Assembly: GCA_051313645.2 (NCBI GenBank)
Contig: JBNRSN020000089.1
Span: forward strand, 2,852,001-2,916,000
Source of the DNA: Centroscyllium fabricii
Taxonomy: Eukaryota
Direction of reading: 5' to 3'
Length of the DNA stretch: 64,000 nt
The notes beneath the pieces are model-generated. The model had not been told where the DNA came from. It made no database searches and saw nothing but the letters and a program-made list of their open reading frames with translations. The position numbers and the translations under genes were made by a program. This document shows positions 4,201-64,000 of this stretch, one piece after another. Numbering within the stretch: the stretch's first letter is position 1; each line of letters opens with the position of its first letter.

Positions 4201-5787
4201 CAATACATCAGAAAATTTCCATCTGTGTAAAATATTTCAGTTAATGTCCACCTGTGTACAATACATCAGACAATATCCATCTGTGTACAATACATAAGAC
4301 ATTATCGTTCTGTGTACAATACATCAGACATTATCCATCTGTGAACAATACATCAGACAATATCCATCTGTGTACAATACATCAGACAAATGTCCATCTG
4401 TGTACAATACATCAGACAATATCCACCTGTGTACAATACATCAGACAATGTCCATCTGTGTACAATACATCAGACAATATCCATCTGTGAACAATACATC
4501 AGAAAATGTCCATCTGTGTATAATACATCAGACATTATCTATCTGTGAGCAATACATCAGACAATATCCATCTGTCTACAATACATCAGACAATATCCAA
4601 CTGCATACAATACATCAGTAAATGTCCATCTGTGTACAATACATCAGACAGTATCCATCTGTGTACAATACATCAGCCATTATCCATCTGTGAACAATAG
4701 AGCAGACATTATCAATCTGTGTACAATTTATCAGACATTGTCCATCTGTGAACAATACCTCAGACATTATCCATCTGTGAACAATAGAGAAGTAATTATC
4801 CATCTGTGTACAATTCATCAGACATTGTCCAACTGTGAACAATACATCAGACATTATCCATCTGTGTACAATACATCAGACAATATCCATTTGTGTACAA
4901 TATTACAGTAAATGTGCATCTGTGTACAATACATCAGACAATGTCCATCTGTGTACTATACATCAGACAATAAGCACCTGTGTACAATACATCAGACAAT
5001 GTCCATCTGTGTACAATATTTCAGACGATATCCATCTGTGAACAATACATCAGAGAGTGTCCTTCTGTGAACAATACATCAGACAATATCCATCTTTGTA
5101 CAATACATCAGACAATGTCTATCTGTGAACAATACATCAGACAATATCCATCTGTGTACAATACATAAGACAAATGTCCATCTGTGTACAATACATCAGA
5201 CAATATCCATCAGTGTACAATACATCAGACAATTTCCATCTGTGTACAATACATCAGACAATATACATCTGTGACAATATATCAGAAAATGTCCATCTGT
5301 GCACGATACATAAGACATTATCAATCTGTATACAATACATCAGACATTATCCATCTGTGTAGAATACATCCGACAATATCCTTCTGTGTATAGTACATCA
5401 GATCATGTCCATCTGTGTACAATCCATCAGACATTGTCCAACTGTTTACAATACATCAGAAAATTTCCATCTGTGAACAATACATAAGACATTATCCATC
5501 TGTGTACAATACATCAGACAATATCCATCTGTGTACAATACATTAGACAACGTCCATCTGTATACAATACATCAGACAATGTCCATCTGTGTACAATACA
5601 TCAGACAATATCCATCTGTGAACATTACATCAGACAATGTCCATCTGTGTACAATATATCAGAAAATGTGCATCTGTGAACAATCCATAGGACAATATCC
5701 ATCTGTGTACAGTACATCAGTCAATGCTCATCTGTGTACAATAGATCCGAAAATGTCCATGTGTGAACAATACATAAGACATTATCC
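1228..5787. repeat. 29-bp satellite array, block 1
   Basis: Tandem TCCATCTGTGTACAATACATCAGACAATG/A with scattered substitutions and rare indel monomers. Confidence 0.99.
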
Positions 5788-6161
5788 TGAAGGGGGAGGG
5801 GAACCAGTTAGAAGTTGTGGTCCACATTGGCACCAACGACATAGGAAAAAAGGGGGACGAGGTCCTGCAAAGAGAATTTAGGGAGCTGGGTAAAAAGCTA
5901 AAAAGCAGGAACCCAAAGGTTGTAATCTCTGAATTACTCCCAGTGCCACGAGCAAGTGAGTGTAGGAACCGTAACATAGAGCAGCTAAATTCGTGGCTAA
6001 GAAGTTGGTGTAAGAAGGAGGGTTTCAGCTTTTTGGACAATTGGTCTTGCTTCTGGGGTAAGTGGAACCTGTACATGCCGGACGGGTTGCACCTGAACCG
6101 GAATGGGACCAATATCCTTGCGGGAAGGTTTGATAGTCGGGTTGGTTTGGGTTTAAACTAA
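5788..6161 (+). pseudogene. CR1 ORF1 C-terminal SGNH/esterase-like domain (truncated)
   Basis: VVVHIGTNDIG and DGLHLNRNG motifs; ends GLN*. Confidence 0.88.
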
Positions 6162-6268
6162 AATGGCAGGGGGAGGGGACCCAGAGTGAAGGCATAAAGG
6201 GTAGGGGAATACAACCTAATAAAGGGAAGCAGACTAGACAGCAAAACAAGGTAGTATTAGGTCAGAGA

Positions 6269-9074
6269 ATGAAAGGTATATATTTTAACGCAAGGAGTCT
6301 GACTAACAAGGTGGATGAGTTAAAGGTATTGGTTGACACATGGGAATATGATATAGTAGCTATCACGGAGACGTGGCTGAAGGAGGGGCAGGAATGGCAG
6401 CTAAATATTCCGGGGTATAGAATTTTCAGGCGGGACAGAGACGAGTGAAAGAGGGGAGGGGGGTAGCGATACTGATTAAAGATTCAATCACAGCCATCAG
6501 GCGGGTCGACCTAATGGATGATTCCTCAAACGAGGCACTATGGGTGGAGGTAAAAAATAAAAAGAGGGGGGGCACCTTACTGGGAGTATATTATAGACCA
6601 CCAAACAGTAATGGGGAGATGGAGGGTAAGATATGTGGGCAAATCACGAAGATAAGCGAAAATAACAAAGTAATAATATTAGGGGACTTTAATTTCCCCA
6701 ACATCAACTGGGATTGTCAGAGTGTGAGGGGCACGGAAGGTTCAGCATTCTTAAAATGCAGCCAAGAGAGTTTTTTGAAGCAATATGTAGGGTCACCTAC
6801 AAGGGGGGGGGGGGCGGTACTAGACCTAATACTTGGGAATGAAGACGGGCAGATAGAGGAAGTAACAGTGGGGGAGCACTTCGGGGATAGCGACCACAAT
6901 TCAGTTAGTTTCAAGATTGTAATAGAGAAGGATAAAAATGGACCAGGGGTAAAAGTACTAAACTGGGGGAAGGCGGATTTCATTAAAATTAGGCGCGATG
7001 TAGCCGCAGTAGACTGGGGCCATCTTCTCAGAGGAAGATCTGCATCAGAGCAGTGGGAGGCCTTCAGAGGGAAGGTCGGGAAGATACAGGAGGAACATGT
7101 TCCTGTAAAAATCAAGGGCGGGGGAGGTAAACAAAGGGAACCTTGGATGTCTAGGGATATATGTAAATTAATGAAGAAAAAAAGGGGGGCCTTCAATGAA
7201 TATAAACGGCTAAAAACTGAGGAGGCGCTAGGGGAGTATAAGAAGTATAGGGGGGAATTAAAGAAGGAGATAAGAAAAACCAAGAGGGGTCATGAGATTG
7301 CAATGGCCGGCAAAATCAAGGATAACCCTAAGGCATTTTACAGTTATATAAAAAACAAAAGGATCACGAGGGAAAGAGTGGGGCCCATTAAGGACGATAG
7401 CGGAAAGCTGTGCGTCGAGCCCGAGGTGGTGGGGGAGGTACTAAACGAATTTTTCTCTTCAGTATTCACAAGAGAGAGGGACGGAACCGACATCGTAATC
7501 GGACAGAGTGTAGGGGGGGTAATTGAGGATATTACCATTACAAGGGAAGAATTACTAGAAATCTTGGGAAGCTGAAAGGTAGACAAATCACCAGCGCCGG
7601 ACGCGATGTTCCCCAGGCTGCTGTTTGAGGCCAGGGAAGAGCTTGCGGGCCCCCTGTCTCAAATTTTCAGGTCCTCTCTCGCGTCAGGGGACGTACCCGA
7701 GGACTGGAGAACGGCTAATGTAGTACCCCTGTTTAAAAAGGGTAGTAGGGACAAACCGGGTAACTATAGGCCAATCAGTCTTACATCTGTAGTGGGGAAA
7801 GTAATGGAAAAAATTCTGAGGGACAAAATCAGTCTGCATTTGGAAAGGCAGGGTCTGATAAGAGATAGTCAACATGGCTTCGTCAAAGGTAAGTCGTGCC
7901 TAACTAATCTCTTGGAATTCTTCGAAGAGGTAACAAAAAGGATGGATGAAGGGAGTACGGTCGACGTGGTGTATATGGACTTCAGCAAGGCTTTTGATAA
8001 ATTCCCACACAGGAGACTGATAACAAAGGTAAAAGCACATGGGATACAGGGCAACGTGGCACAGTGGATTAAAAATTGGCTGGGGGACAGGAGACAAAGG
8101 GTAATCGTAGAGGGCTGCTTCTGCGACTGGAAACCAGTAACCAGCTGTGTCCCCCAAGGATCGGTTTTGGGACCCTTACTGTTTCTAGTATACATTAATG
8201 ATTTGGACACGGGAGTAGGGGGTACGATCAGCAAATTTGCTGATGATACGAAAATTGGAAGGGTGGTAAATAACGATGAAGATAGTAAAAGGCTCCAGGA
8301 AGATATAAATGTAATGGTTAGTTGGGCAGAAAAATGGCAAATGGAGTTCAACCCAGAGAAATGCGAGGTCATACAATTCGGCAGACCAAATGGGGTAAGG
8401 GAATATACCATGAACAAAAAAACGTTAGGTAGAACCGAGGAACAGAGGGACCTTGGGGTACAGGTGCACAGCTCCCTGAAGGTTGCTGGACACGTAAACA
8501 AGGTGGTTAAGAAGGCATACGGAATTCTGGCCTTTATTAACCAGGGCATAGTGTACAAAAGTAGGGAGGTAATGTTAAACTTGTATAACACGCTGGTGAG
8601 TCCTCAGCTGGAGTACTGTGTGCAGTTCTGGTCACCGCACTTCAGGAATGATGTGGTTGCCCTGGAGAGGGTGCAGAGAAGGTTTACCAGGATGATACCT
8701 GGTCTGGGGACTTATGCTACGAGGAAAGGCTGGACAGGCTGGGGTTGTTTGCCTTGGAGAAGAAAAGATTGAGGGGTGACATGATCGAGGTATACAGGAT
8801 CATGAGGGGACACGATAAGGTGTATAAAGGGGCATTGTTTCCCTTGGTGGGAGAGTCAAGTACCAGGGGACATGGATTCAAGATTAGTGGGGTGAGGTTT
8901 AGGGGGGAGGTAAGGAGAAATTTATTTACTCAGAGGGTGGTGGAAGTGTGGAACTCCCTGCCTGTAAGGGTGGTGGAGGCAGAAATCATCGCAACATTTA
9001 AAAAAATTTTGGACCAGCACATGAAGGACCGTAACATACAGGGTTATGGGCCAGATGCGGGCAAATGGGATTAG
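6269..9074 (+). pseudogene. CR1 ORF2 (AP endonuclease + reverse transcriptase), disrupted
   Basis: Motifs GDFNFP, SDH, YRPISLTS, PQGSVLGP and KFADDTK. Frameshift near 6446, nonsense TGA at 7573-7575 (TTA in copy 2), frameshift near 8707. Confidence 0.93.
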
Positions 9075-9789
9075 TATAGCGAGGAGTTTCCTGGGCCGGT
9101 ACGGACTGGATGGGCTGAATGGCCTTTATCCGCACTGTAAAGTTTCTATGATTCTATTATTCTATGATTATCCATCTGTGTACAATACATCAGATATTTT
9201 CCATCTGTGTACAATACATCAGAAAATGTCCATCCGTGAACAATACATAAGACATTATCCATCTGTGTACAGTACATCAGTCAATGTCCATCTGTGTACA
9301 ATACATCAGACAATGTCCATCTGTGTACAGTACATCAGACAATGTCCATCTGTGTACAGTACATCAGACAATGTCCTTCTGTGTACAGTACATCAGACAA
9401 TGTCCATCTGTGTACTGTACATCAGACAATGTCCTTCTGTGTACAGTACATCAGATCATGTCCAGCTGTGTACAATACATCAGAATTGTCCATCTGTGTA
9501 CAATACATCAGAAAATGTCCATCTCTATACAATACATCAGAAAATGACCATCTGTGAACAATACATAAGACATTATCCATCTGTGTACAATACATCAGAC
9601 AATGTCCATTTGTGAACAAAATATCAGCCAATATCCATCTGTGAACAATACATCAGACAATGTCCATCTGTATACAATACATCAGTCAATATCCATCTGT
9701 GTACAATACATCAGACAATATCCATCTGTGTACAGTACATCAGACAATTTCCACCTGTCTACAATATATCAGACAATGTCCATCTGTGA

Positions 9790-12700
9790 ACAATACATCA
9801 GACAATGTCCATCTGTGTACAATACATCAGACAATATCCATCTGTGTACAATACATCAGACAATATCCATCTGTGAACAATACATCAGGCAATTTCCACC
9901 TGTCTACAATATATCAGACATTGTCCATCTGTGTACAATACATCAGAGATTGTCCATCTGTGTACAATACATCAGACTTTGTCCATCTGAGTACAATACA
10001 TTAGACAATGTCCTTCTGTGAACAATATATCAGACAATGTCCATCTGTGAACAATACATCAGACAATGTCCATCTGTGTACAATACATCAGACAATGTCC
10101 ATCTGTGTACAATAAATCAGACAATATCCATCTGTGAAAATTACATCAGACAATGTCCATCTGTGAACAATATATCAGAAAATGTCCATCTGTGAACAAT
10201 CCATAAGACAATATCCATCTGTGTACAGTACATCAGTCAATGTCCATCTGTGTACAATAGATCCGAAAATGTCCATTTGTGAACAATACATAAGACATTA
10301 TCAATCTGTGTACAATACATCAGACATTATCCATCTCTGTACAATACATCAGAAAATGTCCATCTGTGAACAATACATAAGACATTATCCATCTCTGTAC
10401 AATACATCAGACAATGTCCATTTGTGAACAAAATATCAGACAATATCCATTTGTGAACAATACATCAGACAATGTCCATCTGTGTACAATACATCAGACA
10501 ATTTCCAACTGTGTACAATACATCAGATAATATCCATCTGTATACGGTACATCAGACAATGTCCATCTGTGTACAATACATCAGAAAATATCGATCTTTG
10601 TACAATACATCACACAATGTCCATCTGTGAACAATACATCAGACAATGTCCATCTGTTTACAATACATCAGACAATGTCCACCTGTGTACAGTACATCAG
10701 ACAATGTCCATCTGTGTACAGTACATCAGACAATGTCCTTCTGTGTACAGTACATCAGATCATGTCCAGGTGTGTACAATACATCAGACATTGTCCATCT
10801 GTGTACAATACATCAGAAAATGTCCATCTCTGTACAATATATCAGAAAATGTCTATCTGTGAACAATCCATAAGACAATATCCATCTGTGTACAGTACAT
10901 CAGACAATATCCATCTCTGTACAATACATTAGAAAATGTCCATCTGTGAACAATACATCAGACATTATCCAGCTGTGTACAATACATCAGAAAATGACCA
11001 TCTGTGAACAATACATAAGACATTATCCATCTGTGTACAATACATCAGACAATGTCGATTTGTGAACAAAACATCAGACATTATCCATCCGTGAACAATA
11101 CATCAGACAATGTACATCTGTGTACAATACATCAGACAATATCCATCTGTGTACAATACATCAGACAATATCCATCTGTGTACAGTACATCAGACAATTT
11201 CCACCTGTTTACAATATATCAGACAATATCCATCTGTGAACAATACATCAATCAATGTCCATCTGTGTAAAATACATCAGACAAATATCCATCTGTGTTC
11301 AATACATCAGACAATATGCATCTGTGAACAATATATAAGACATTATCCATCTGTGTACAATACATCAGACATTATCCATCTGTGTACAATACATCAGAAA
11401 ATGTCCATCTGTGAACAATACATAAGACATTATCCATCTGTGTACAATACATCAGACATTATCCACCGGTGAACAATACATCAGAAAATATCCATCTGTG
11501 TACAATACATCAGACAAATGTCCATCTGTGTACAATATATCAGACAATATCCACCTGTGTACAATACTTCAGACAATGTCCATCTGTGTACAATAAATCA
11601 GACAATATCCATCTGTGAACAATACATCAGAAAATGTCCATCTGTGTACAATATATCAGACATTATCCATCTGTGAACAATACATCAGACAATAACCATC
11701 TGTGTACAATACATCAGACAATTTCCATCTCTGTACAATACATCAGAAAATGTCCATCTGTGTATAATACATCAGACAATATCCATCTGTGTACAATACA
11801 TCAGCCATTATCCATCTGTGAACAATAGAGCAGTCATTATACACCTGTGTACAATATATCAGACATTGTCCATCTGTGAACAAGACATCAGACATTATCC
11901 AGCTATGTACAATACATCACACCATATCCATCTGTGTACAATAAATCAGACAATGTCCATCTGTGTACAATCCATCAGACAATATCCATCTGTGAACAAT
12001 AGATCAGACAATGTCAATCTGTGTACAATACATCAGACAATATCCAGCTGTTTAGAATACATCAGACAATGTCCATCTGTGAAAAATACATCAGACAATG
12101 TCCATCTGTGTACAATACATCAGATATTGTCCATCTGTGTACAATACATCAGACAATATGCACCTGTGTACAATACATCAGACAATGTCCATCTGTGTAC
12201 AATACATCAGACAATATCCATCTGTGTACAATACATCTGAAAATGTCCATCTGTGTACAATATATCAGACAATATCCATCTGTGTACAATACATCAGACA
12301 TTATCCATCTGTGAACAATACATCAGACATTATCCATCTGTGTACAATACATCAGACATTGTCCATCGGTGAACAATACATCAGACATTATCCATCTGTC
12401 TACAATACATCAGACAATATCCATCTGTGTACAATACATGAGAAAATGTCCATCTGTGAGCAATCCATCAGACAATATCCATCTGTGTACAATACATCAG
12501 GGAATGTCCATCTGTGTACAATACATCAGACATTATCCATCTGTGAACAATACTTCTGACAATGTCCATCTGTGTACAATACAACAGACGATATCCATCT
12601 GTGTACAATACATCAGACAATGTCCATCTGTGAACAATATATCAGACAATGTCCATCTGTGGACAATATATCAGACAATGTCGATCTGTGTACAATACGT

Positions 12701-15700
12701 CAGACAATATGCTTCTGTGTACAATAAATCAGACAATGTCCATCTGTGTACAATACATCAGACAATGTCCAGCTGTGAACCATACATCAGACAATATCCA
12801 TCTGTGTACAATACATCAGACAATGTCCATCTGTGTACAATACATCAGACAATGTCCATCTGTGAACGATACATCAGACAATGTCCAAATGTGTACAATA
12901 CATCAGACATTGTCCATCTGTGTACAATACATCAGATATTGTCCATCTGTGTACAATACATCAGAAAATGTCCATCTTTGTACAATGCATCAGACAATGT
13001 CCATCTGTGAACAATACATCAGACAATATCCATCTGTGTACAATACATCAGACAATATCCATCTGTGTACAATACATCAGAAAATGTCCATCCGTGTACA
13101 ATACATCAGACAATATCCATCTGTGTACAATACATCAGCCATTATCCATCTGTGAACAATAGAGCAGACATTATCCATCTGTGTACAATACATCGAACAT
13201 TGTCCATCTGTGAACAATACACCAGACATTATCTATCTGTGTACAAGACATCAGACAATTTTCATCTTTGTACTATAAATCAGACAATGTCCATCTGTGT
13301 ACATTCCATCAGAAAATATCCATCTGTGTACAATACGTCAGAGAACGTCCAGCTGTGTAGAGTACATCAGACAATATCCATCTGTGAACAATACATCGGA
13401 CAATGTCCATCTGTGTACAATACATCAGACAATATCCAGCTGTGTAGAATACATCAGACAATGTCCATCTGTGAGCAATACATCAGACAATGTCCATCTG
13501 TGTACAATACATCAGACAATGTCCATCTGTGTACAATACATCAGACAATATACAACTGTGTACAATACATCAGACAATGTCCATCTGTGTACAATACATC
13601 AGACAATATCCATCTGTGTACAATACATCAGACAATATCCATCTGTGAACAATACATCAGGCAATTTCCACCTGTCTACAATATATCAGACATTGTCCAT
13701 CTGTGTACAATACATCAGAGATTGTCCATCTGTGTACAATACATCAGACTTTGTCCATCTGAGTACAATACATTAGACAATGTCCTTCTGTGAACAATAT
13801 ATCAGACAATGTCCATCTGTGAACAATACATCAGACAATGTCCATCTGTGTACAATACATCAGACAATGTCCATCTGTGTACAATAAATCAGACAATATC
13901 CATCTGTGAAAATTACATCAGACAATGTCCATCTGTGAACAATATATCAGAAAATGTCCATCTGTGAACAATCCATAAGACAATATCCATCTGTGTACAG
14001 TACATCAGTCAATGTCCATCTGTGTACAATAGATCCGAAAATGTCCATTTGTGAACAATACATAAGACATTATCAATCTGTGTACAATACATCAGACATT
14101 ATCCATCTCTGTACAATACATCAGAAAATGTCCATCTGTGAACAATACATAAGACATTATCCATCTCTGTACAATACATCAGACAATGTCCATTTGTGAA
14201 CAAAATATCAGACAATATCCATTTGTGAACAATACATCAGACAATGTCCATCTGTGTACAATACATCAGACAATTTCCAACTGTGTACAATACATCAGAT
14301 AATATCCATCTGTATACGGTACATCAGACAATGTCCATCTGTGTACAATACATCAGAAAATATCGATCTTTGTACAATACATCACACAATGTCCATCTGT
14401 GAACAATACATCAGACAATGTCCATCTGTTTACAATACATCAGACAATGTCCACCTGTGTACAGTACATCAGACAATGTCCATCTGTGTACAGTACATCA
14501 GACAATGTCCTTCTGTGTACAGTACATCAGATCATGTCCAGGTGTGTACAATACATCAGACATTGTCCATCTGTGTACAATACATCAGAAAATGTCCATC
14601 TCTGTACAATATATCAGAAAATGTCTATCTGTGAACAATCCATAAGACAATATCCATCTGTGTACAGTACATCAGACAATATCCATCTCTGTACAATACA
14701 TTAGAAAATGTCCATCTGTGAACAATACATCAGACATTATCCAGCTGTGTACAATACATCAGAAAATGACCATCTGTGAACAATACATAAGACATTATCC
14801 ATCTGTGTACAATACATCAGACAATGTCGATTTGTGAACAAAACATCAGACATTATCCATCCGTGAACAATACATCAGACAATGTACATCTGTGTACAAT
14901 ACATCAGACAATATCCATCTGTGTACAATACATCAGACAATATCCATCTGTGTACAGTACATCAGACAATTTCCACCTGTTTACAATATATCAGACAATA
15001 TCCATCTGTGAACAATACATCAATCAATGTCCATCTGTGTAAAATACATCAGACAAATATCCATCTGTGTTCAATACATCAGACAATATGCATCTGTGAA
15101 CAATATATAAGACATTATCCATCTGTGTACAATACATCAGACATTATCCATCTGTGTACAATACATCAGAAAATGTCCATCTGTGAACAATACATAAGAC
15201 ATTATCCATCTGTGTACAATACATCAGACATTATCCATCGGTGAACAATACATCAGAAAATATCCATCTGTGTACAATACATCAGACAAATGTCCATCTG
15301 TGTACAATATATCAGACAATATCCACCTGTGTACAATACTTCAGACAATGTCCATCTGTGTACAATAAATCAGACAATATCCATCTGTGAACAATACATC
15401 AGAAAATGTCCATCTGTGTACAATATATCAGACATTATCCATCTGTGAACAATACATCAGACAATAACCATCTGTGTACAATACATCAGACAATTTCCAT
15501 CTCTGTACAATACATCAGAAAATGTCCATCTGTGTATAATACATCAGACAATATCCATCTGTGTACAATACATCAGCCATTATCCATCTGTGAACAATAG
15601 AGCAGTCATTATACATCTGTGTACAATATATCAGACATTGTCCATCTGTGAACAAGACATCAGACATTATCCAGCTATGTACAATACATCACACCATATC

Positions 15701-17379
15701 CATCTGTGTACAATAAATCAGACAATGTCCATCTGTGTACAATCCATCAGACAATATCCATCTGTGAACAATAGATCAGACAATGTCAATCTGTGTACAA
15801 TACATCAGACAATATCCAGCTGTTTAGAATACATCAGACAATGTCCATCTGTGAAAAATACATCAGACAATGTCCATCTGTGTACAATACATCAGATATT
15901 GTCCATCTGTGTACAATACATCAGACAATATGCACCTGTGTACAATACATCAGACAATGTCCATCTGTGTACAATACATCAGACAATATCCATCTGTGTA
16001 CAATACATCTGAAAATGTCCATCTGTGTACAATATATCAGACAATATCCATCTGTGTACAATACATCAGACATTATCCATCTGTGAACAATACATCAGAC
16101 ATTATCCATCTGTGTACAATACATCAGACATTGTCCATCGGTGAACAATACATCAGACATTATCCATCTGTCTACAATACATCAGACAATATCCATCTGT
16201 GTACAATACATGAGAAAATGTCCATCTGTGAGCAATCCATCAGACAATATCCATCTGTGTACAATACATCAGGGAATGTCCATCTGTGTACAATACATCA
16301 GACATTATCCATCTGTGAACAATACTTCTGACAATGTCCATCTGTGTACAATACAACAGACGATATCCATCTGTGTACAATACATCAGACAATGTCCATC
16401 TGTGAACAATATATCAGACAATGTCCATCTGTGGACAATATATCAGACAATGTCGATCTGTGTACAATACGTCAGACAATATGCTTCTGTGTACAATAAA
16501 TCAGACAATGTCCATCTGTGTACAATACATCAGACAATGTCCAGCTGTGAACCATACATCAGACAATATCCATCTGTGTACAATACATCAGACAATGTCC
16601 ATCTGTGTACAATACATCAGACAATGTCCATCTGTGAACGATACATCAGACAATGTCCAAATGTGTACAATACATCAGACATTGTCCATCTGTGTACAAT
16701 ACATCAGATATTGTCCATCTGTGTACAATACATCAGAAAATGTCCATCTTTGTACAATGCATCAGACAATGTCCATCTGTGAACAATACATCAGACAATA
16801 TCCATCTGTGTACAATACATCAGACAATATCCATCTGTGTACAATACATCAGAAAATGTCCATCCGTGTACAATACATCAGACAATATCCATCTGTGTAC
16901 AATACATCAGCCATTATCCATCTGTGAACAATAGAGCAGACATTATCCATCTGTGTACAATACATCGAACATTGTCCATCTGTGAACAATACACCAGACA
17001 TTATCTATCTGTGTACAAGACATCAGACAATTTTCATCTTTGTACTATAAATCAGACAATGTCCATCTGTGTACATTCCATCAGAAAATATCCATCTGTG
17101 TACAATACGTCAGAGAACGTCCAGCTGTGTAGAGTACATCAGACAATATCCATCTGTGAACAATACATCGGACAATGTCCATCTGTGTACAATACATCAG
17201 ACAATATCCAGCTGTGTAGAATACATCAGACAATGTCCATCTGTGAGCAATACATCAGACAATGTCCATCTGTGTACAATACATCAGACAATGTCCATCT
17301 GTGTACAATACATCAGACAATATACAACTGTGTACAATACATCAGACAATGTCCATCTGTGTACAATACATCAGACAAT
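9790..17379. repeat. Near-identical tandem duplication, period 3772 bp (130 monomers + 2 bp)
   Basis: Identical ORF-track translations at a constant 3772 offset (10182/13954, 11818/15590, 12649/16421). Rare variant monomers are shared. Confidence 0.93.
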
Positions 17380-23300: not shown

Positions 23301-25159
23301 TCCATCTGTGAACAATACATCAGACAATATCCAACTTAGTACAATACATCAGAAAATGTCCATCTGTGAACAATGCATAAGATATTATCCGTCTGTCTAC
23401 AATACATCAGACATTATCCATCTGTGTACAATACATGAGAAAATGTCCATCTGTGTGCAGTCCATCAGACAATATCCATCTGTGTACAATACATCAGAGA
23501 ATGTCCATCAGTGTACAGTACATCAGACATTATCGATCTGTGAACAATACTTCAGACAATGCCCATCTGTGTACAATACATCAGACGATATCCATCTGTG
23601 TACAATACATCAGACAATGTCCATCTGTGAACAATACATCAGACAATGTCCATCTGTGGACTATATATCAGACAATGTCGATCTGTGTACAATACGTCAG
23701 ACAATATGTTTCTGTTTACAATACATCAGACATTGTCCATCTGTGTACAATACATCAGAGAATGTCCATCTGTGAACCATACAATCAGACAATATCCATC
23801 TGTGTACAATACATCAGACAATGTCCATCTGTGTACAATACATCAGAAAATGTCCATCTGTGAACAATACATCAGACAATGTCCAACTGTGACAATACAT
23901 CAGATATTGTCCATCTGTATACAATACATCAGATATTATCCATCTGTGTACAATACATCAGAAAATGTCCATCTGTGTACAATGCATCAGACAATGTCCA
24001 TCTGTGAACAATACATCAGATAATATCCATCTGTGTACAATACATCAGACAATATCCATCTGTGTACAATACATTTGAAAATGTCCATCCGTGTACAATA
24101 TATCAGACAATATCCATCTGTGTACAATACATCAGCCATTATCCATCTGTGAACAATAGAGCAGACATTATCCATCTGTGTACAATACATCGGACATTGT
24201 CCATCTGTGAACAATACACCAGACATTATCCATCTTTGTACAAGACATCAGACAATATCCATCTATGTACTATAAATCAGACAATGTCCATCTGTGTACA
24301 ATCCATCAGACAATATCCATCTGCGTACAATACGTCAGATAACTTCCATCTGTGTAGAGTACATCAGACAATATCCATCTGCGAACAATACATCGGACAA
24401 TTTTCCATCTGTGTACAATACATCAGACAATATCCAGCTGTGTAGTATATATCAGAAAATGTCCATCTGTGAGCAATGCATCAGACGATGTCCATCTGTG
24501 TACAATACATCAGACAATGTCCATCTGTGTACAATACATCAGACAATATGCAACTGTGTACAATACATCAGACAATGTCCATCTGTGTACAATACATCAG
24601 ACAATGTCCAACTGTGAACAAAACATCTGACAATATCCATCTGTGTACAATACTTCAGACAATGTCCATCTGTGTACAATACATCAGACAATGTCCATCT
24701 GTGTACAATATATCAGACAAATGTCCATCTGTGTACAATACATCAGACAATATCCATCTGTGAACAATATATCAGACAGTTTCCATCTGTGAACAATTCA
24801 TCAGACAATATCCATCTTTGTACAATACATCAGAAAATGTCCATCTCTGAACAATATATCAGACAATATCTATCTGTGTACAATACAGCAGACAAATGTT
24901 CATCTGTGTACAATACATCAGACAATATCCATCAGGGTACAATACATCAGACAATTTCCATCTGTGTACAATACATCAGACAATATCCATCTGCGAAAAA
25001 TGTATCACAAAATGGCAATCTGTGCACTATACATAAGACATGATCAAACTGGGTACAATACAGCTGACATTATTCATCTGTGTAGAATACATCAGACAAA
25101 AGCCATCTCTGTATAATACATCAGAAAATGTCCATCTGTGTACCATACATCAGATATTA

Positions 25160-30528: not shown

Positions 30529-30874
30529 TGTGGTCCACATTGGCACCAACGACATAGGAAAACAGGGGGACGAGGTCCTGCAAAGAAAATTTAAGGAGCT
30601 AGGTAAGAAGCTAAAAAGCAGGACCCCAAAGGTTGTAATCTCTGGATTACTCCCAGTGCCACGAGCTAATGAGTACAGGAACCGTAAGATAGAGCAGCTT
30701 AATTCGTGGCTAAGAGATTGGTGTAGGAGGGAGTGTTTCAGCTTTTTGGACAATTGGTCTTACTTCTGTGGAAGGTGGAACCTCTACATGCAGGACGGAT
30801 TGCACCTGAACCAGAAGGGGACCAATATCCTTGCGGGAAGGTTTGCTAGCCGGGTTGGGGTGGGTTTAAACTAA
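30529..30874 (+). pseudogene. CR1 ORF1 C-terminal SGNH/esterase-like domain (truncated)
   Basis: VVHIGTNDIG...DGLHLNQKG...GLN*. Confidence 0.88.
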
Positions 30875-51500: not shown

Positions 51501-54500
51501 ATGTCCATCTGTGTGCAATCCATCAGACAATATCCATCTTTGTACAATACATCAGAGAATGTCCATCTTTGTACAGTACATCAGACATTATCCATCTGTG
51601 AACAATATTTCAGACAATGTCCATCTGTGTACAATACATCAGACAATATCTATCTGTGTACAATACATCAGACAATGTCCATCTGTGAACAATACATCAG
51701 ACAATGTACATCTGTGGACAATACATCTGACAATTTCGATCTGTGTACAATACATCAGACAATATGCTTCTGTGTACAATACATCAGACAATGTCCATCT
51801 GTGTACAATACTTCAGACAATGTCCATCTGTGAACAATACATCAGACAATAATCATCTGTGTACAATACATCAGGCAATGTCCATCTGTGTACAATACAT
51901 CAGTCAATGTCCATCTGTGATCAATACATCAGACAATGTCCCTCTGTGTACAATACATTAGGGAATGTCCACCTGTGTACAGTACATCAGACATTATCCA
52001 TCTGTGTACAATACTTCAGACAATATCCATCTGTGTACAATACATCAGACATTATCCATCTGTGAACAATAAATCGGACATTATCCATCTGTGTACAATA
52101 CATCAGACATCTACATCTGTGAACAATACATCAGACATCATCCATCTGTGTACAATACATCAGACAATATCCATCTGTGTACAATACACCAGAGAGTTTC
52201 CATCTGTGAACAATACATCAGACAACATCCATCTGTGTACAATACATCAGAAAATGTCCATCTGTGAACAATACATAAGACATTATCCATCTGTCTACAA
52301 TACATCAGACATTATCCATCTGTGAACAATACATCAGACAATGTCCATCTGTGGACAATACATCAGACAATGTCGATCTCTGTACAATACATCAGACAAT
52401 ATGCTTCTGTGTACAATGCATCAGACAATGTCCATCTGTGTACAATACTTCAGACAATGTGCATCTGTGAACAATACATCAGACAATATTCATCTGTGTA
52501 CAATACATCAGACAATGTCCATCTGTGTACAATACATCAGGCAATGTCCATCTGTGATCAATACATCAGACAATGTCCCTCTGTGTACAATACATCAGAC
52601 ATTGTCCATCTGTGTACAATACATCACACATTATCCATCTGCGTACAATTCATCAGAAAATGTTCATCTGTGTACAAAACATCAGTCAATTTCCTCTGTG
52701 AACAATACATCAGACAATATCCATCTGTGTACAAAACATCAGACATTGTCCATCTGTGAACAATACATCAGAAAATAGCATCTGTGTACAATACATCAGA
52801 CATTGTCCGTCTGTGTACAATACATCAGACAATGTCCATCTGTGAACAATACATCAGACAATGTCCATCTGTGTACAATACATCAGACAATGTCCATCTG
52901 TGAGCAATACATCAGACAATATCCATCTGTGTACAATACATCAGACAATGTCCATCTGTGAACAATACATCAGACAATGTCCATCTGTGAACAATACATC
53001 AGACATTGTCCATCTGTGTACAATACATCAGAGATTTTCCATCAGTGTACAATACATCAGACATTGTCCATCTGTGTACAATCTATCAGACAATATCCAT
53101 CTGTGTACAATACATTAGACAATGTCCATCTGTGAACAATACATCAGACAATGTTCATCTGTGAACAATACATCAGACAATGTCCATCTGTGTACAATAT
53201 ATCAGACAATGTCCATCTGTGTACTATACATCAGACAATATCCATCTGTGAACATTACATCAGACAATGTCCATCTTTGTACAATATATCTGAAAATTTC
53301 CATCTGTGAGCAATCCATAAGACAATACCCATCTGTGCACAGTAAATCAGACAATGTGCATCTGTGTACAATAGATCAGAAAATGTCCATGTGTGAACAA
53401 TACATAAGACATTATCCAACTTTGTACAATACATCAGACATTATCCATCTGTGTACAACACATCAGAAAATTTCCATCTGTGAACAATACATAGGACATT
53501 ATCCATCTGTGTACAATACATCAGACAATGTCCAATTGTGAACAAAACATCAGACAATATCCATCTGTGAACAATACATCAGACAATGTCCATCTGTGTG
53601 CAATACATCAGACAATTTCCATCTGTGTACAATATATCAGACAATATCCATCTGTTTACAGTACATCAGACAAAGTCCATCTGTGTACATTACATCAGAA
53701 AATGTCCATCTGTGTACAATACATCAGACATTATCCATCTGTGAACAATACATCAGAAAATAACCATCTGTGTACAATACATCAGACAATATCCATCTCT
53801 GTACAATATATCCGAAAATGTTCATCTGTGTATAATACATCAGACAATGTCCATCTGTGAACAATACATCAGACAATATCCATCTGTGTACAATACATCA
53901 TACAATATCCATCTGTGTACAATACATCAGAAAATGTCCATCCGTGTACAATACATCAGACAATATCCATCTGTGTACAATACATCAGCCATTATCCATC
54001 TGTGAACTATAGAGCAGACATTATCCATCTGTGTACAATATATCGGACATTGTCATCTGTGAACAATACACCAGAAATTATCCATCTGTGTACAATACAT
54101 CAGACAATATCCATCTGTGTACTATAAATCAGACATTGTCCATCTGTGTACAATCCATCAGACAATATCCATCTGTGTACAGTACGTCAGCGAACGTCCA
54201 TCTGTGTAGAGTACATCAGACAATATCCATCTGTGAGCAATACATCGGACAATGTCCATCTGTGGATAATACATCAGACAATGTCGATCTGTGTACAATA
54301 CGTCAGACAATATGCATCTGTGTACAATACATCAGACAATGTCCATCTGTGTACAATACATCAGAAAATGTCCATCTGTGAACCATATATCAGGCAATAT
54401 CCATCTGTGTAGAGTACATTAGACAATATCCAGCTTTGTGGAATACATCAGACAATGTCCATCTGTTAGCAATACATCAGACAATGTCCATCTGTGTACA

Positions 54501-57500
54501 ATACATCAGACAATGTCCATCTGTGTACAATACATCAGACAATATGCAACTGTGTACAATACATCAGACAATGTCCATCTGTGTACAATACATCAGACAA
54601 TGTCCATCTGTGAACAATACATCAGACAATATCCAATTGTGTACAATACTTCAGACAATGTCCATCTGTGTACAATACATCAGGCAATGTCCATCTGTGT
54701 ACAATACATCAGACAAATGTCCATCTGTGTACAATACATCAGACAATATCCATCTGTGAACAATACATCAGACAGTTTCCATCTGTGAACAATACTTCAG
54801 ACAATATCCATCTTTGTACAATACATCAGAAAATGTCCATCTCTGAACAATATATCATACAATATCCATCTGTGTACAATACATCAGACAATGTCCATCT
54901 GTGAACAATACATCAGACAATGTCCAACTGTGTACAATACTTCAGACATTGTCCATCTGTGTACAATACATCAGATATTATCCATCTGTGTACAATACAT
55001 CAGAAAATGCCCATCAGTGTACAATGCATCAGACAATGTCCATCTGTGAACAATACATCAGACAATATCCATCTGTGTACAATACATCAGACAATATCCA
55101 TCTGTGTACAATACATCATAAAATGTCCAACCGTGTACAATACATCAGACAATATCCATCTGTGTACAATACATCAGCCATTATCCATCTGAGAACAATA
55201 GAGCAGACATTATCCATCTGTGTACAATACCTCGGACATTGTCCATCTGTGAACAATACACCAGACATTATCCATCTGTGTACAATACATCAGACAACAT
55301 CCATCTGTGTACTATAAATCAGAGAATGTCCATCTGTGTACAATCAATCAGACAATATCCATCTGTGTACAATACGTCAGAGAACGTCCATCTGTGTAGA
55401 GCACATCAGACAATATCCATCTGTGAACAATACATCGGACAATGTCCATCTGTGTACAATACATCAGACAATATCCAGCTGTGTAGAATACATCAGACAA
55501 TGTCCATCTGTGAGCAACACATCAGATAATGTCCATCTGTGTACAATACACCAGACAATGTCCATCTGTGTACAATACATCAGACAATATGCAACTGTGT
55601 ACAATACATCAGGCAATGTCCATCTGTGTACAATACATCAGACAATGTCCATCTGTGAACAATACAAAAGACAATATCCATCTGTGTACAATACTTCAGA
55701 CAATGTCCATCTGTGTACAATACATCAGAGAATGTCCATCTGTGTACAATACATCAGACAAATATCCATCTGTGTACACTACATCAGACAATATCCATCT
55801 GTGAACAATACATCAGACAGTTTCCATCTGTGAACAATACATCAGACAATATCCATCTTTGTACAATACATCAGAAAATGTCCATCTCTGAACAATATAT
55901 CAGACAATATCCATCTGTGTACAATACATCAGACAAATGTCCATCTGTGTACAATACATCAGACAATATCCATCAGTGTACAATACATCAGACAATTTCC
56001 ATCTGTGTACAAAACATCAGACAATATCCATCTGTGAACTATATATCAGAAAATGTCCATCTGTGCATAATACATAAGACATTATCAATCTGGGTACAAT
56101 ACATCTGACATTATTCATCTGTGTAAAATACATGAGACAATATCCATCTCTGTATAATGCATCAGAAAATGTCCATCTGTGTACCATACATCAGACATTA
56201 TCCATCTGTGAACAATACATCAGACAATATCCATCTGTGTACAATAAGTCAGACAATATCCATCTGTGTACAATACATCAGAAAATGTCCGTCTGTGTAC
56301 AATACATCAGTCAATATCCATCTCTGTACAATACATCAGACATTATCCATCTGTGAACAATACATCGGACATTATCCATCTGTGTACAATACATCAGACA
56401 TTTTCCATCTGTGAACAATACATCAGACATTATCCATCAGTGTACAATACATCAAACAATATCCATCTGTGTACAATACACCAGAGAATGTCCATCTGTG
56501 AAAAATACATCAGACAATATCCATCTGTGTACAAAACATCAGAAAATGTCCATCTGTGAACAATACATAAGACATTATCCATCTGTCTACAATACATCAG
56601 ACATTATCCATCTGTGTACAATACATGAGAAAATGTCCATCTATGTGCAATCTATCAGACAATATCCATCTGTGTACAATATTTCAGAAAATGTCCATAT
56701 GTGTACAGTACATCAGACATTATCCATCTGTGAACAATAATTCAGACAATGTCCATCTGTGTACAATACATCAGACAATATCCATCTGTGTACAATACAT
56801 CAGACAATGTCCATCTGTGAACAATACATCAGACAATGTCCATCTGTGGACAATACATCAGTCAATGTCGATCTGTGTACAATACATCAGACAATATGCT
56901 TCTGTGTACAACACATCAGACATTGTCCATCTGTGTACAATACTTCAGACAATGTCCATCTGTGAACAATATATCAGACAATATTCATCTGTGTACAATA
57001 CATCAGACAATGTCCATCTGTGTACAATACATCAGACAATGTCAATCTGTGATCAATACATCAGACAATGTCCCTCTGTGTACAATACATCAGTGAATGT
57101 CCATCTGTGTACAGTACATCAGACATTATCCATCTGTGAACAATACTTCAGACAATGGCCATCTGTGTACAATACATCAGACAATATCCATCTTTGTACA
57201 ATACATCAGACAATGTCCATCTGTGAACAATACATCAGACAATGTCCATCTGTGGACAATACATCAGACAATGTCGATCTGTGTACAATACGTCAGACAA
57301 TATGCATCTGTGTACAATACATCAGACAATGTCCATCTGTGTACAATACATCAGACAATGTCCATCTGTGAACCATACATCAGACAATATCCATCTGTGT
57401 ACAATACATCAGACAATGTCCATTTGTGTACAATACATCAGACAATGTCCATCTTTGAACAATATATCGGACAATGTCCAACTGTGTACAATACATCAGA

Positions 57501-60500
57501 CTTTGTCCATCTGTGTACAATATATCAGATATTATCCATCTGTGTACAATACATCAGAAAATGTCCATCTGTGTACAAAGCATCAGACAATGTCCATCTG
57601 TGAACAATACATCAGACAATATCCATCTGTGTACAATACATCAGACAATATACATCTGTGTACAGTACATCAGAAAATGTCCATCCGTATACAATACATC
57701 AGACAATATCCATCTGTTTACAATACATCAGCCATTATACATCTGTGAACTATAGAGCAGACATTATCCATCTGTGTACAATACATCGGACATTGTCCAT
57801 CTGTGAACAATACACCAGACATTATGCATCTGTGTACAATACATCAGACAATATCCATCTGTGTACTATAAATCAGACAATGTCCATCTGTGTACAATCC
57901 ATCAGACAATATCCATCTGTGTACAGTACGTCAGAGAACGTCCATCTGTGTAGAGTACATCAGACAATATCCATCTGTGAACAATACATCGGACAATGCC
58001 CATCTGTGGACAATACATCAGACAATGTCGATCTGTGTACAATACGTCAGTCAATATGCATCTGTGTACAATACATCAGACAATGTCCATCTGTGTAAAA
58101 TACATCAGACAATGTCCATCTGTGAACCATACATCAGACAATATCCATCTGTGTAGAGTACATCAGACAATATCCAGCTGTGTAGAATACATCAGACAAT
58201 GTCAATCTGTGAGCAATACATCAGACAATGTCCATCTGTGTACAATACATCAGACAATGTCCATCTGTGTACAATACATCAGACAATATGCAACTGTGTA
58301 CAATACATCAGACAATGTCCATCTGTGTACAATACATCAAACAATGTCCATCTGTGAAAAATACATCAGAAAATATCCATCTGTGTACAATACTTCAGAC
58401 AATGTCCATCTGTGTACAATACATCAGACAATGTCCATCTGTGTACAATACATCAGACAAATGTCCATCTGTGTACAATACATCAGACAATATCCATCTG
58501 TGAACAATACATCAGACAGTTTCCATCTGTGAACAATACATCAGACAATATCCATCTTTGTACAATACATCAGAAATGTCCATCTCTGAACAATATATCA
58601 GACAATATCCATCTGTGTACAATACATCAGACAAATGTCCATCTGTGTACAATACATCAGACAATATCCATCAGTGTACAATACATCAGACAATTTCCAT
58701 CTGTGTACAATACATCAGTCAATATCCATCTGTGAACAATATATCAGAAAATGTCCATCTGTGCACAATACATAAGACATTATCATTCTGGGTACAATAC
58801 ATCTGACATTATCCATCTGTGTAGAATACATCAGACAATATCCATCTCTGTATAATACATCAGAAAATGTCCATCTGTGTACCATACATCAGACATTATC
58901 TATCTGTGAACAATACATCAGACAATATCCATCTGTGTACAATAAATCAGACAATATCAATCTGTGTACAATACATCAGAAAATGTCCTTCTGTGTACAA
59001 TATATCAGACAATATCCATCTGTGTACAATACATCAGACATTATCCATCTGTGAACAATACATCGGACATTATTCATCTGTGTACAATACATCAGACATT
59101 TTCCATCTGTGAACAATACATCAGACATTATCCATCTGTGTACAATACATCAGACAATATCCATCTGTGTACAATACACCAGAGAATGTCCATCTGTGAA
59201 CAAAACATCAGACAATATCCATCTGTGTACAATACATCAGAAAATGTCCATCTCTGAACAATACATAAGACATTATCCATCTGTCTACAATACATCAGAC
59301 ATTATCCATCTGTGTACAATACATGAGAAAATGTCCATCTGTGTGCAGTCCATCAGACAATATCCATCTGTGTACAATATATCAGAGAATGTCCATCTGT
59401 GTACAGTACATCAGACATTATCCATCTGTGAACAATAATTCAGACAATGTCCATCTGTGTACAATACATCAGACAATATCCATCTGTGTACCATACATCA
59501 GACAATGTCCATCTGTCAACAATACATCAGACAATGTCCATCTGTGGACAATACATCAGAAAATGTCCATATGTGTACAGTACATCAGACATTATCCATC
59601 TGTGAACAATACTTCAGACAATGTCCATCTGTGTACAATACATCAGACAATATCCATCTGTGTACAATACATCAGACAATGTCCATCTGTGAACCATACA
59701 TCAGACAATGTCCATCTGTGGACAATACATCAGACGATGTCGATCTGTGTACAATACATCAGACAATATGCTTCTGTGTACAACACATCAGACAATGTCC
59801 ATCTGTGTACAATACATCAGAGAACGTCCATCTGTGTAGATTACACCAGAAAATATCCATCTGTGAACAATAGATCAGACAATGTCCATCTGTGTACAAT
59901 ATATCAGACAATATCCAGCTGTGTAGAATACATCAAACAATGTCCATCTGTGAACAATACATCAGACAATGTCCAGCTGTGTACAATACAACAGAAAATG
60001 TCCATCTGTGAACAATACATAAGACATTATCCATCTGTCTGCAATACATCAGACATTATCCATCTGTGAACAATACATCAGACAATGTCCATCTGTGGAC
60101 AATACATCAGACAATGTCGATCTCTGTACAATACATCAGACAATATGCTTCTGTGTACAATACATCAGACAATGTCCATCTGTGTACAATACTTCAGACA
60201 ATGTCCATCTGTGAACAATACATCAGACAATATTCATCTGTGTACAATACATCAGATAATGTCCATCTGTGTACAATACATCAGACAATGTCCATCTGTG
60301 ATCAATACATCAGACAATATCCCTCTGTGTACAATACATCAGACATTGTCCATCTGTGTACAATACATCACACATTATCCATCCGCGTACAATACATCAG
60401 AAAATGTTCATCTGTGTACAATACATCAGTTAATTTCCTCTGTGAACAATACATCAGACAATATCCATCTGTGTACAAAACATCAGACATTGTCCATCTG

Positions 60501-63361
60501 TGAACAATACATCAGAAAATACCATCTGTGTACAATACATCAGACATTGTCCGTCTGTGTACAATACATCAGACAATGTCCATCTGTGAACAATACATCA
60601 GACAATGTCCATCTGTGTACAATACATCAGACAATGTCCATCTGTGAACAATACATCAGACAATATCCATCTGTGTACAATACATCAGACAATGTCCATC
60701 TGTGAACAATACATCAGACAATGTCCATCTGTAAACAATACATCAGACATTGTCCATCTGTTTACAATACTTCAGAGATTTTCCATCTGTGTACAATACG
60801 TCAGACATTGTCCACCTGTGTACAATGCATCAGACAGTATCCATCTGTGTACAATATATTAGACAATGTCCATCTGTGAACAATACATCAGACAATGTTC
60901 ATCTGTGTACAATACATCAGACAATATCCATCTGTGAACATTACATCAGACAATGTCCATCTTTGTACAATATATCAGAAAATTTCCATCTGTGAACAAT
61001 CCATAAGACAATATCCATCTGTGCACAGTAAATCAGACAATGTGCATCTGTGTACAATAGATCAGAAAATGTCCATGTGTGATCAATACATAAGACATTA
61101 TCCAACTGTGCACAATATATCAGACATTATCCATCTGTGTACAACACATCAGAAAATTTCCATCTGTGAACAATACATAAGACATTATCCATCTGTGTAC
61201 AATAAGTCAGACAATGTCCATTTGTGAACAAAACATCAGACAATATCCATCTGTGAACAATACATCAGACAATGTCCATCTGTGTGCAATACTTCAGACA
61301 ATTTCCATCTGTGTACAATACATCAGACAATATCCATCTGTGTACAGTACTTCAGACAAAGTCCATCTGTGTACAATACATCAGAAAATATCCATCTGTG
61401 TACAATACAACACACAATGTCCATCTGTGAACAATACATCAGACAATGTCCATCTGTGACAATAAATCATACAATGTCCATCTGTGTACATTACATCAGA
61501 CAATGTCCATCTGTGTACAATACATCAGACAATGTCCTTCTGTGTAGAATACATCAGACAATGTCCATCTGTGTACATTACATCAGAAAATGTCCATCTG
61601 TGTACAATACATCAGACATTTTCCATCTGTAAACAATACATCAGACAATAACCATCTGTGTACAATACATCAGACAATATCCACCTCTGTACAATACATC
61701 AGAAAATGTTCATCTGTGTATAATACATCAGACAATATCCACTTGTGTACAATACATCAGAAAATGTCCATCTGTGTACAATATATCAGACAATATCCAT
61801 CTGTGTACAATACATCAGACATTATCCATCTGTGAACAATACATCAGACATTATCCATCTGTGTACAATACATCAGACATTGTCCATCTGTGAACAATAC
61901 ATCAGACATTATCCATCTGTGTACAATACGTCAGACAATATCCATCTGTGTACAATACATGAGAAAATATCCATCTGTGTGCAATCCATCAGACAATATC
62001 CATCTGTGTACAATACATCAGGGAATGTCCATCTGTGTACAGTACATCAGACATTATCCATCTGTGAACAATACTTCAGAAAATGTCCATCTGTGTACAA
62101 TACATCCGACGATATCCATCTGTGTACAATACATCAGACAATGTCGATCTGTGAACAAAACATCAGACAATGTCCATCTGTGGACAATACATCAGACAAT
62201 GTCGATCTGTGTACAATACGTCAGACAATATGCTTCTGTGTACAATACATCAGACAATGTCCATCTGTGTACAATACATCAGACAATGTCCATCTGTGAA
62301 CCATACATCAGCCAATATCCATCTGTGTACAATACATCAGACAATATCCATCTGTGTACAATACATCAGACAATGTCCATCTGTGAACAATACATCAGAC
62401 AATGTCCAACTGTGTACAATACATCAGACATTGTCCATCTGTGTACAATACATCAGATATTATCCATCTGTGTACAATACATCAGAAAATGCCCATCAGT
62501 GTACAATGCATCAGACAATGCCCATCTGTGAACAATACATCAGACAATATCCATCTGTGTACAATATATCAGACAATATCCATCTGTGTACAATACATCA
62601 GAAAATGTCCAACCGTGTACAATACATCAGAGAATATCCATCTGTTTACAATACATCAGCCATTATCCATCTGTGAACAATAGAGCAGACATTATCCATC
62701 TGTGTACAATACCTCGTACATTGTCCATCAGTGAACAATACACCAGACATTATCCATCTGTGTACAATACATCAGACAATATCCATCTGTGTACTATAAA
62801 TCAGACAACGTCCATCTGTGTACAATCAATCAGACAATATCCATCTGTGTACAATACGTCAGAGAACGTCCATCTGTGTAAAGTATATCAGACAATATCC
62901 ATCTGTGAACAATACATCGGACAATGTCCATCTGTGTACAATACATCAGAAAATATCCAGCTGTGTAGAATACATCAGACAATGTCCATCTGTGAGCAAT
63001 ACATCAGACAATGTCCATCTGTGTACAATACACCAGACAATGTGCATCTGTGTACAATACATCAGACAATATGCAACTGTGTACAATACATCAGACAATG
63101 TCCATCTGTGTACAATACATCAGACAATGTCCATCTGTGAACAATACATCAGACAATATCCATCTGATAACAATACTTCAGACAATGTCCATCTGTGTAC
63201 AATACATCAGACAATATCCACCTCTGTACAATACATCAGAAAATGTTCATCTGTGTATAATACATCAGACAATATCCACTTGTGTACAATACATCAGAAA
63301 ATGTACATCTGTGTACAATATATCAGACAATATCCATCTGTGTACAATACATCAGACATTA
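39593..63361. repeat. 29-bp satellite array, block 5
   Basis: Continuous 29-bp periodicity with recurring higher-order variant blocks. Confidence 0.99.
42732..45435. repeat. Tandem duplication, period 1334 bp (46 monomers); boundaries approximate
   Basis: ORF pairs 42849/44183, 43060/44394, 43244/44578 and 43824/45158. Confidence 0.82.
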
Positions 63362-63968
63362 CAAAAGTAGGGAGGTAATGTTAAACCTGTATAACACACT
63401 GGTGAGACCTCAGCTGGAGTACTGTGTGCAGTTCTGGTCACCGCACTACAGGAAGGATGTGGCTGCCCTGGAGAGGGTGCAGAGAAGGTTTACCAGGATG
63501 ATACCTGGTCTGGCGGACCTATGCTACGAGGAAAGGCTGGACAGGCTGGGGTTGTTTGCCTTGGAGAAAAGAAGGTGGAGGGGTGACATGATTGAGGTGT
63601 ACAAGATCATGAGGGGACACGATAGGGTAGACAAAGTGGCATTGTTTCCCCTGGTGGGAGAGTCAAGCACTAGGGGACATAGATTCAAGATCAGGGGGGG
63701 GGGAGGTTTAGGGGGGAGGTAAGGAGAAATTTCTTTACCCAGAGGGTGGTGGAAGACTGGAACTCCCTGCCTGTGAGGGTGGTGGAGGCAGGAACCATCA
63801 CAACATTTAAAAAATACTTGGACCAGCACATGAAGGACCATAACATACAGGGTTATGGGCCAGGTGCGGGCAACTGGGGTTAGAACAGTGAGGAGTTTTT
63901 CTGGGCCGGTGCGGACTGGATGGGCCGAATGGCCCTTATCCGCACTGTAAAATTTCTATGATTCTATG
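63362..63968 (+). mobile_element. CR1 LINE copy 3, heavily 5'-truncated (~0.6 kb; ORF2 C-terminus + 3' UTR)
   Basis: YKSREVMLNLYNTLVRPQLEYCVQFWSP..., closer to copy 2 than to copy 1. Tail ATTCTATG; direct repeat ATTA at 63358-63361 and 63969-63972. Confidence 0.96.
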
Positions 63969-64000
63969 ATTATCCATCTGTGAACAATACATCAGACATT
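63969..64000. repeat. 29-bp satellite resumes
   Basis: ATTATCCATCTGTGAACAATACATCAGACATT. Confidence 0.95.

Follow-up and report, generated by a model that had tools for sequence, protein, structure and literature searches.

The stretch of Centroscyllium fabricii DNA analyzed here (the window, 64,000 nt; G000:C1477:2,852,001-2,916,000 in a 7.2-Gb assembly) consists mostly of a 29-bp satellite, into which three copies (A, B and C) of a CR1-type long interspersed element (LINE) family, designated F1, have been inserted. A preliminary description had reported that all three copies join the satellite at the same position of the monomer and in the same orientation, and had proposed a satellite-targeting CR1. 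We find that the common junction extends across the whole array and that it probably results from ordinary, genome-wide CR1 LINEs repeatedly joining the satellite at one bond, likely via an endonuclease preference for a short motif. Sequence preference, and not satellite targeting, is the likely basis. The relevant features of the window are listed below, where phase 1 denotes the base after GAC in the monomer.

1225..64000, + strand: 29-bp satellite, monomer AWTRTCCATCTGTGWACAATACATCAGAC, with variants AATG, AATAT, ATTAT and ATTG, interrupted by inserted elements.
5781..5787, + strand: target ATTATCC, 5' copy for A; target-site duplication (TSD) of 3-7 bp, the last 3-4 nt of which match the element too.
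5788..9166, + strand: CR1 copy A, F1 subfamily a, 5'-truncated within the esterase region of open reading frame 1 (ORF1); tail ending ...ATTCTATTATTCTATG.
9167..9173, + strand: 3' junction of A, target ATTATCC, phase 1; ATT also prolongs the tail.
30524..30528, + strand: target AATAT, 5' copy for B; TSD of 4-5 bp.
30529..33854, + strand: CR1 copy B, F1 subfamily b, with the end of an ORF1 GDSL/SGNH esterase, an apurinic/apyrimidinic-type (APE) endonuclease and a reverse transcriptase (RT); tail (ATTCTATG)2.
33855..33861, + strand: 3' junction of B, target AATATCC, phase 1.
63358..63361, + strand: target ATTA, 5' copy for C; TSD of 2-4 bp.
63362..63968, + strand: CR1 copy C, F1 subfamily b, a 607-bp 3' fragment.
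63969..63975, + strand: 3' junction of C, target ATTATCC, phase 1.

Copies A and B are 3379 and ~3325 bp in length. ORF2 of copy A is interrupted by stops and frameshifts, and copy B carries one frameshift, in the endonuclease region. ORF2 of copy B matches APE (PF03372/PF14529) and then RT (PF00078), with no other Pfam family on these stretches, and its ORF1 matches the SGNH/GDSL esterase family PF13472 (E=9e-13) as well as the 'ORF1-encoded protein' of PDB entry 4c1b (E=2e-18). In the window and in dispersed copies alike, the F1 3' end is an octamer repeat, (ATTCTATG)1-3, with no poly(A). On this architecture, the tail and a general resemblance, F1 is provisionally assigned to the CR1 clade of LINEs.

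The tails of the three copies end at 9166, 33854 and 63968 and run directly into ATTATCC, AATATCC and ATTATCC, on the + strand and at the base after GAC, exactly as had been described. That the copies are separate events was likewise borne out: they differ in length and in flanking monomers, their pairwise identities are 91.5% (A/B), 91.3% (A/C) and 97.9% (B/C), and each has closer relatives among dispersed copies than in the array. Copy C does have an identical twin with the same junctions 4.9 kb further on, beyond the window, which represents an array duplication. The TSDs of 7, 5 and 4 bp reported for A, B and C stand as maxima, because comparison with a natural long copy reveals microhomology of up to 4, 1 and 2 nt, respectively, at the 5' junctions; the true duplications may be as short as 3, 4 and 2 bp.

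The satellite forms a single ~886-kb array (G000:C1477:2,152,903-3,039,055) holding ~820 kb of satellite and ~27-28 thousand monomers. A 25-nt monomer core has 7550 exact matches genome-wide, all on one strand and all inside this interval. Thirty-seven interruptions were found in a survey of the array, in which gaps under ~40 bp would escape detection, and these comprise 31 copies of elements lacking long terminal repeats (non-LTR copies), 5 LTR-type copies and one 3.1-kb piece of captured genomic DNA. Merging of copies with the same two junctions (a 411-bp F1 copy found four times, copy C twice, an F2 copy four times and a short interspersed element, or SINE, ten times) reduced the 31 non-LTR copies to 15 independent events: seven of F1, six of F2, one of a third family (F3) and one of the SINE. 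F2 is a second CR1 family with a TGTTCTA tail, ~68% identical to F1. A long F1 copy (5.6 kb, G000:C1477:2,607,066-2,612,689) and a long F2 copy (5.1 kb, 2,485,846-2,490,932) both carry 5' tandem repeats with the common motif GCCAGCGCGGGCT(T/A)TTTAAAAA, yet their ORFs are only ~65-68% alike.

Fourteen of the 15 independent non-LTR events join the monomer at phase 1 on the + strand, including all seven F1 events, all six F2 events and the SINE. The remaining event, that of F3, lies at phase 18, which is the monomer's other AC|AAT site (the bar marks the junction), and none of the 15 is on the minus strand. Could one or a few ancestral insertions have been multiplied as the array duplicated, and later altered through deletion or gene conversion so as to mimic independent events? 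Duplication is real, given the reduction from 31 copies to 15 events, and two F2 copies are 99.5-99.75% alike. However, the events come from families that are 65-68% alike plus a SINE, and when 400-bp 3' ends were compared with 157 dispersed hits, each of the seven array F1 copies had its nearest relative among the dispersed copies and not in the array. Furthermore, most 5' junctions lie within about -6..+7 of the same bond, which is expected of target-primed reverse transcription (TPRT) and not of random deletion. We therefore regard ancestral spread as very unlikely. The same comparison of array 3' ends with the 157 dispersed hits showed no satellite-specific F1 subfamily.

It had also been noted that no insertion hits the AATGTCC monomer variant. 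This holds in the window, where 3/3 junctions are in AWTAT monomers (P=0.08), but avoidance of AATGTCC is rejected for the array as a whole: nine of the 14 phase-1 events are in AWTAT monomers and five in AATG-type monomers. A mild lean towards AWTAT persists for F1 (6/7, P=0.026) but not when events are pooled (9/14, P=0.085). The accompanying estimate of chance, (1/58)^2, was right in that the lock lies far beyond uniform expectation (14/15, P~1e-22). Uniform choice among 58 positions is nonetheless the wrong null for F1, given the junction preferences at dispersed sites and in a SINE that are described below.

The 3'-end pattern of F1 is matched exactly at 17,455 places in the genome, of which only 11, representing the seven independent events, are in this single array, and more than 99.9% of F1 matches lie outside the satellite. 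For F2, 12,332 matches were counted under a G/C filter, which scales to about 26,000 overall. The seven F1 events in the array compare with 2.0 expected (3.5x, P=0.004), and the six F2 events with 2.9 expected (2x, P=0.08). A CR1 lineage dedicated to the satellite, with site specificity like that of Tx1 or R1, would account for the 7/7 use of one bond and strand by F1 and for its 3.5x density, but it is refuted by the genome-wide distribution. The 3' flanks of dispersed F1 copies are diverse, a dispersed SINE contains a bond with a higher insertion rate than that in the satellite, the satellite bond is also used by F2 and a SINE, and there is no array-specific subfamily. The proposal of a satellite-targeting CR1 is not supported, and we give such a lineage almost no credence.

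In order to define the target preference of F1 outside the array, 120 dispersed loci were sampled, 118 of them distinct and thirty selected through a distant GC filter. Two rows from the SINE hot spot were left out, which slightly flattens the logo. The logo was built from the 103 of 118 loci at which the tail ends at, or no more than 4 bases from, a full octamer, with 15 excluded. Downstream of the junction, position +1 is A in 93%, +2 is T in 60% or A in 31%, and the next two positions are A/T in 69% and 67%. Past about +5 the logo is flat, and no long conserved flank is common to the family copies. For the upstream side, empty-site homologues were found for 42 loci, of which 37 passed a mismatch filter; in these, -1 is C in 49%, -2 is A in 38%, -3 is A/C in 81% and -5 is C in 51%. 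Of 148 loci, 80 could be resolved for TSDs, which mostly measure 0-3 nt, and the tail has AT, ATG or ATT in common with many junctions, the overlap often being 1-3 bases. With their short junction motif and their hot spots inside other repeats, dispersed F1 copies behave as an APE LINE with a short, degenerate target preference.

A dispersed SINE (127,991 exact 33-mers; an estimated ~370,000 copies, on the basis of 8 of 23 sampled) served as a control, since it offers look-alike bonds outside the satellite. One ~44-bp stretch of this SINE accounts for 344 F1 matches, or about 2% of F1 copies. Among the first 100 of these 344, 67 are at GACAC|ATATCC, 20 at CCCAC|ATATTC and 13 elsewhere as tallied by eye, and a script check of the first 30 placed 22 and 4 at the two bonds, respectively. 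In the next SINE window, 34/41 F1 insertions are at CGCAC|ATCTT (24/30 by script), with none at TC|AATT and one at CC|AATC. There are 46 F1 matches in the opposite orientation, of which 35 use one bond of the same ATAT and one is in another repeat. Among SINE insertions whose 5' junction is within the locus, most have a SINE remainder upstream and they differ in length; the hot-spot copies are therefore independent insertions. F2 insertions, too, occur at the best SINE bond (6 of 100 rows sampled), a share that the G/C filter may have inflated.

Estimated per-site rates, expressed against the genome mean, are ~660x, ~200x, ~140x (opposite orientation) and ~100x for the SINE sites and ~200x for satellite phase 1. 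Copy numbers were scaled up from small samples, and the accuracy of these figures is perhaps twofold. Per site, the insertion rate at the best SINE bond thus exceeds that at the satellite bond. Within a ~29-bp double-stranded window round the best SINE bond, the size of one monomer, ~69% of events fall on one bond in one orientation. The lower 95% bound of the 14/15 satellite share is 68%, so that the interval includes the ~69% of the SINE, and a lock of the size seen in the satellite therefore matches F1 behaviour elsewhere. The two orientations stand at ~4.4:1 at this SINE site, and with such a ratio a 14:0 split would have P=0.056. As to what had been named as decisive for the original proposal, phase within the satellite is non-uniform and the bias exceeds what generic AT or ATT microhomology would give, but F1 shows a matching bias outside the satellite.

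A contribution of the tail has to be separated from that of the nick. If nicks were unselective and the junction depended solely on where the tail (ATT or AT) could pair with the nicked target, the AT, ATG or ATT common to the tail and many dispersed junctions would be explained, as would the TATG that the F1 tail shares with the main opposite-orientation SINE site. In contrast, three F2 events join ...TATGT to AATGTCC with zero tail match, and the SINE bond CAT|ATTC, with a 4-nt tail match, has one event versus 87 at AC|ATAT among the first 100 of the 344 matches. The base upstream of the junction is unable to pair, yet it is biased to C, and the many other AT, ATT and ATG sites of the satellite are empty. 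Tail pairing alone is insufficient, as the no-match F2 junctions and the cold SINE bond demonstrate, and we consider it an improbable sole cause.

A nick preference combined with tail pairing, which the preliminary description had offered as the cause, is the most likely explanation. Both in the satellite and in three stretches of the unrelated SINE, junctions cluster at AC|A(T/A) bonds of the top strand. In the mechanism we envisage from the junctions, the APE domain would nick the bottom strand at 5'-(A/T)T/GT-3' (top strand AC|AW), with which the previously suggested bottom-strand site ATAWT/GTC agrees. The freed 3' end would prime reverse transcription, as in TPRT, aided by 0-3 nt of tail-target pairing where possible, and a second nick on the top strand, 2-4 nt away, would yield the short TSD. 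Wider context would impose a several-fold ranking of AC|AW bonds and of the two orientations, such that one bond and one strand win in each monomer, and some insertions would later be multiplied by array duplications.

Several results weigh against this explanation. A weight matrix derived from dispersed sites puts 72-98% on the two SINE hot-spot bonds, but the same matrix gives satellite phase 1 only 6-27% across 12 settings, shares at which 14/15 has P<=1e-7. It often ranks phase 18 or 23 as high as phase 1, often with phase 18 preferred, and as a full explanation it failed for the satellite. At a SINE-calibrated share of 70%, 14/15 has P=0.035, and at 56%, P=0.002. The upstream logo is weaker (-1 C 35%, -2 A 47%; n=17) when defined through TSDs, a source that is mostly uninformative, since a match of at least 3 nt was present in only 18 of 80 resolved 5' junctions, of which 17 were used. 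Outside the array, heptamers are used alike (ATTGTCT 10, AATGTCC 12, AATATCC 17 and ATTATCC 9; tallied by eye in 100 of 130 rows), and the density of F1 and F2 events pooled is about 2.6x that expected (P=0.002), which is a mild excess and not targeting. The downstream heptamer was rejected as the source of the strand bias, since the unused minus-strand heptamer is about as frequent elsewhere.

The shortfall could instead point to a factor specific to the array, such as a bound protein, positioned nucleosomes, monomer bending or one-way replication or transcription, that exposes phase 1 and one strand and raises density, with AC|AW merely picking the candidate bonds. The matrix falls short for the satellite and not for the SINE. 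Moreover, all 15 non-LTR events are on one strand, though the AATG monomer has a near-mirror GAC|ATTGTC on the other strand whose heptamer is in use elsewhere, and the 2.6x density would also be accommodated. Nevertheless, the dispersed SINE too has unexplained 3-7-fold differences among CAC|AT bonds and the ~4.4:1 orientation bias, so that no such factor is required, and a six-base upstream matrix already puts phase 1 first. With a good site in every 29 bp and weak purifying selection, an excess of a few-fold would be expected. The three LTR-type events in the array are at three phases, none of them phase 1, and other phases have therefore not been purged from the array. On balance, we judge an array-specific factor unlikely.

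Under the endonuclease preference that we favor, longer context, DNA shape or array chromatin may lie behind the success of phase 1 over phases 18 and 23 and over the mirror site. L1-type endonucleases are described as using a hairpin loop to choose their targets, for the most part by the structure of the DNA (PMC1950540). Selection of this kind could plausibly explain why similar bonds differ several-fold in rank. We tentatively raise a broader possibility, which is that the CR1 endonucleases here read extended DNA structure and not just AC|AW; CR1 would then be a semi-site-specific clade, and the array a natural landing pad whose strand and phase are maybe also set by chromatin. Such a feature would be common to at least two CR1 families ~68% alike and would direct ~2% of F1 to one 44-bp SINE stretch, up to ~6% of F2 to one SINE bond and 14/15 insertions to one bond and strand of the satellite.

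The remaining features of the array and its surroundings are as follows.

G000:C1477:2,848,784-2,853,224 (covers window 1-1224): LTR element, 4.4 kb, with an integrase core (PF00665), duplicated at 2,835,930.
Window 35180-36889 and 37883-39591: a pair of identical solo-LTR-like elements, each 1.7 kb long and containing an internal 211-bp tandem repeat, within a 2.7-kb array duplication.
G000:C1477:2,669,080-2,672,219: captured ordinary genomic DNA, 3.1 kb, with an exon-like start matching NSRP1_N (PF09745, E=9e-10).
G000:C1477:2,696,504-2,745,699: nested ~10-kb and ~2.4-kb duplications over about 50 kb, carrying 10 SINE copies and 4 short CR1 copies.
G000:C1477:3,039,059-3,189,268: a different, 37-bp C-rich satellite, 150 kb with ~4060 copies, directly adjoining the 29-bp array.

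The 4.4-kb LTR element has ~240-bp terminal repeats that are 98% alike and is inserted at monomer phase 2 with a 4-bp TSD; one of its copies arose by array duplication. A relative of the 1.7-kb solo-LTR-like elements, a 3.8-kb two-unit copy at C1477:2,602,883, is at a different monomer phase. In the captured piece, a GT donor and intron-like repeats come after the exon-like stretch, and both ends show short microhomology with the monomer; the piece looks like a templated repair insertion. SINE pairs in the nested duplications differ by 3-5%, a divergence that could date amplification steps of the 29-bp array. The 37-bp satellite has a single interruption over 120 bp, of ~200 bp, and no F1, F2 or F3 tails were found in its 150 kb, an absence that says little where ~1 would be expected.

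The nearest known systems are the vertebrate CR1-clade LINEs, namely amniote CR1 with its 3' octamer microsatellite and, in sharks and rays, HER1 with its partner SINE HE1. Identity with HER1/HE1 is no more than possible, on general resemblance, and the repeats of the window likewise appear similar to those of cartilaginous fishes. F1 agrees with vertebrate CR1 (PMC4316615, PMC6007223) in the esterase-type ORF1, APE and RT in ORF2, a short tandem-repeat tail, 5' truncation, short TSDs and tail-target overlap; it differs in its definite AC|AW target motif and in measured single-bond hot spots of 100-660x. HE1 and HER1 are listed as a SINE/LINE pair of sharks and rays in PMC3747384. L1 and Alu (TT|AAAA), with the nested-insertion hot spots in human transposable elements described by Levy et al. 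(PMC2836564), are similar to F1 in that a dispersed APE LINE whose nick preference is short and degenerate produces single-nucleotide, orientation-biased hot spots inside other repeats. Unlike L1/Alu, F1 belongs to a different clade, would nick at WT/GT instead of TTTT/AA, and has a microsatellite tail in place of poly(A) and TSDs of mostly 0-4 bp versus ~15; the host repeat here is moreover a tandem satellite.

Like F1, the site-specific APE elements Tx1 and R1 insert time and again in a single orientation at one bond within the unit of a tandem repeat, but they reside mainly in their own target repeat, whereas F1 is >99.9% outside the satellite. According to PMC6007223, site specificity among APE clades is confined to Tx1 and R1; the same paper describes CR1 tails that overlap the target at the 3' side, and APE LINEs that show weak preferences for particular sites. 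A literature search, with most subscription papers outside its reach, found no CR1 target motif, no CR1 satellite phase lock and no site-specific CR1; the motif may already be published.

These results remove the case for a satellite-targeting CR1. What they offer instead is a target motif that can be measured, together with strong hot spots, in a clade whose insertion is usually regarded as close to random. CR1 insertions used as presence/absence markers carry a risk of homoplasy from independent insertions at the same bond, the SINE hot spot included, and the dating of nested insertions on the assumption of uniform targets is affected as well. The satellite and SINE sites together constitute a ready substrate set for the biochemistry of CR1 endonucleases. 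If the leftover phase and strand bias were array-specific, insertion phase would report satellite chromatin.

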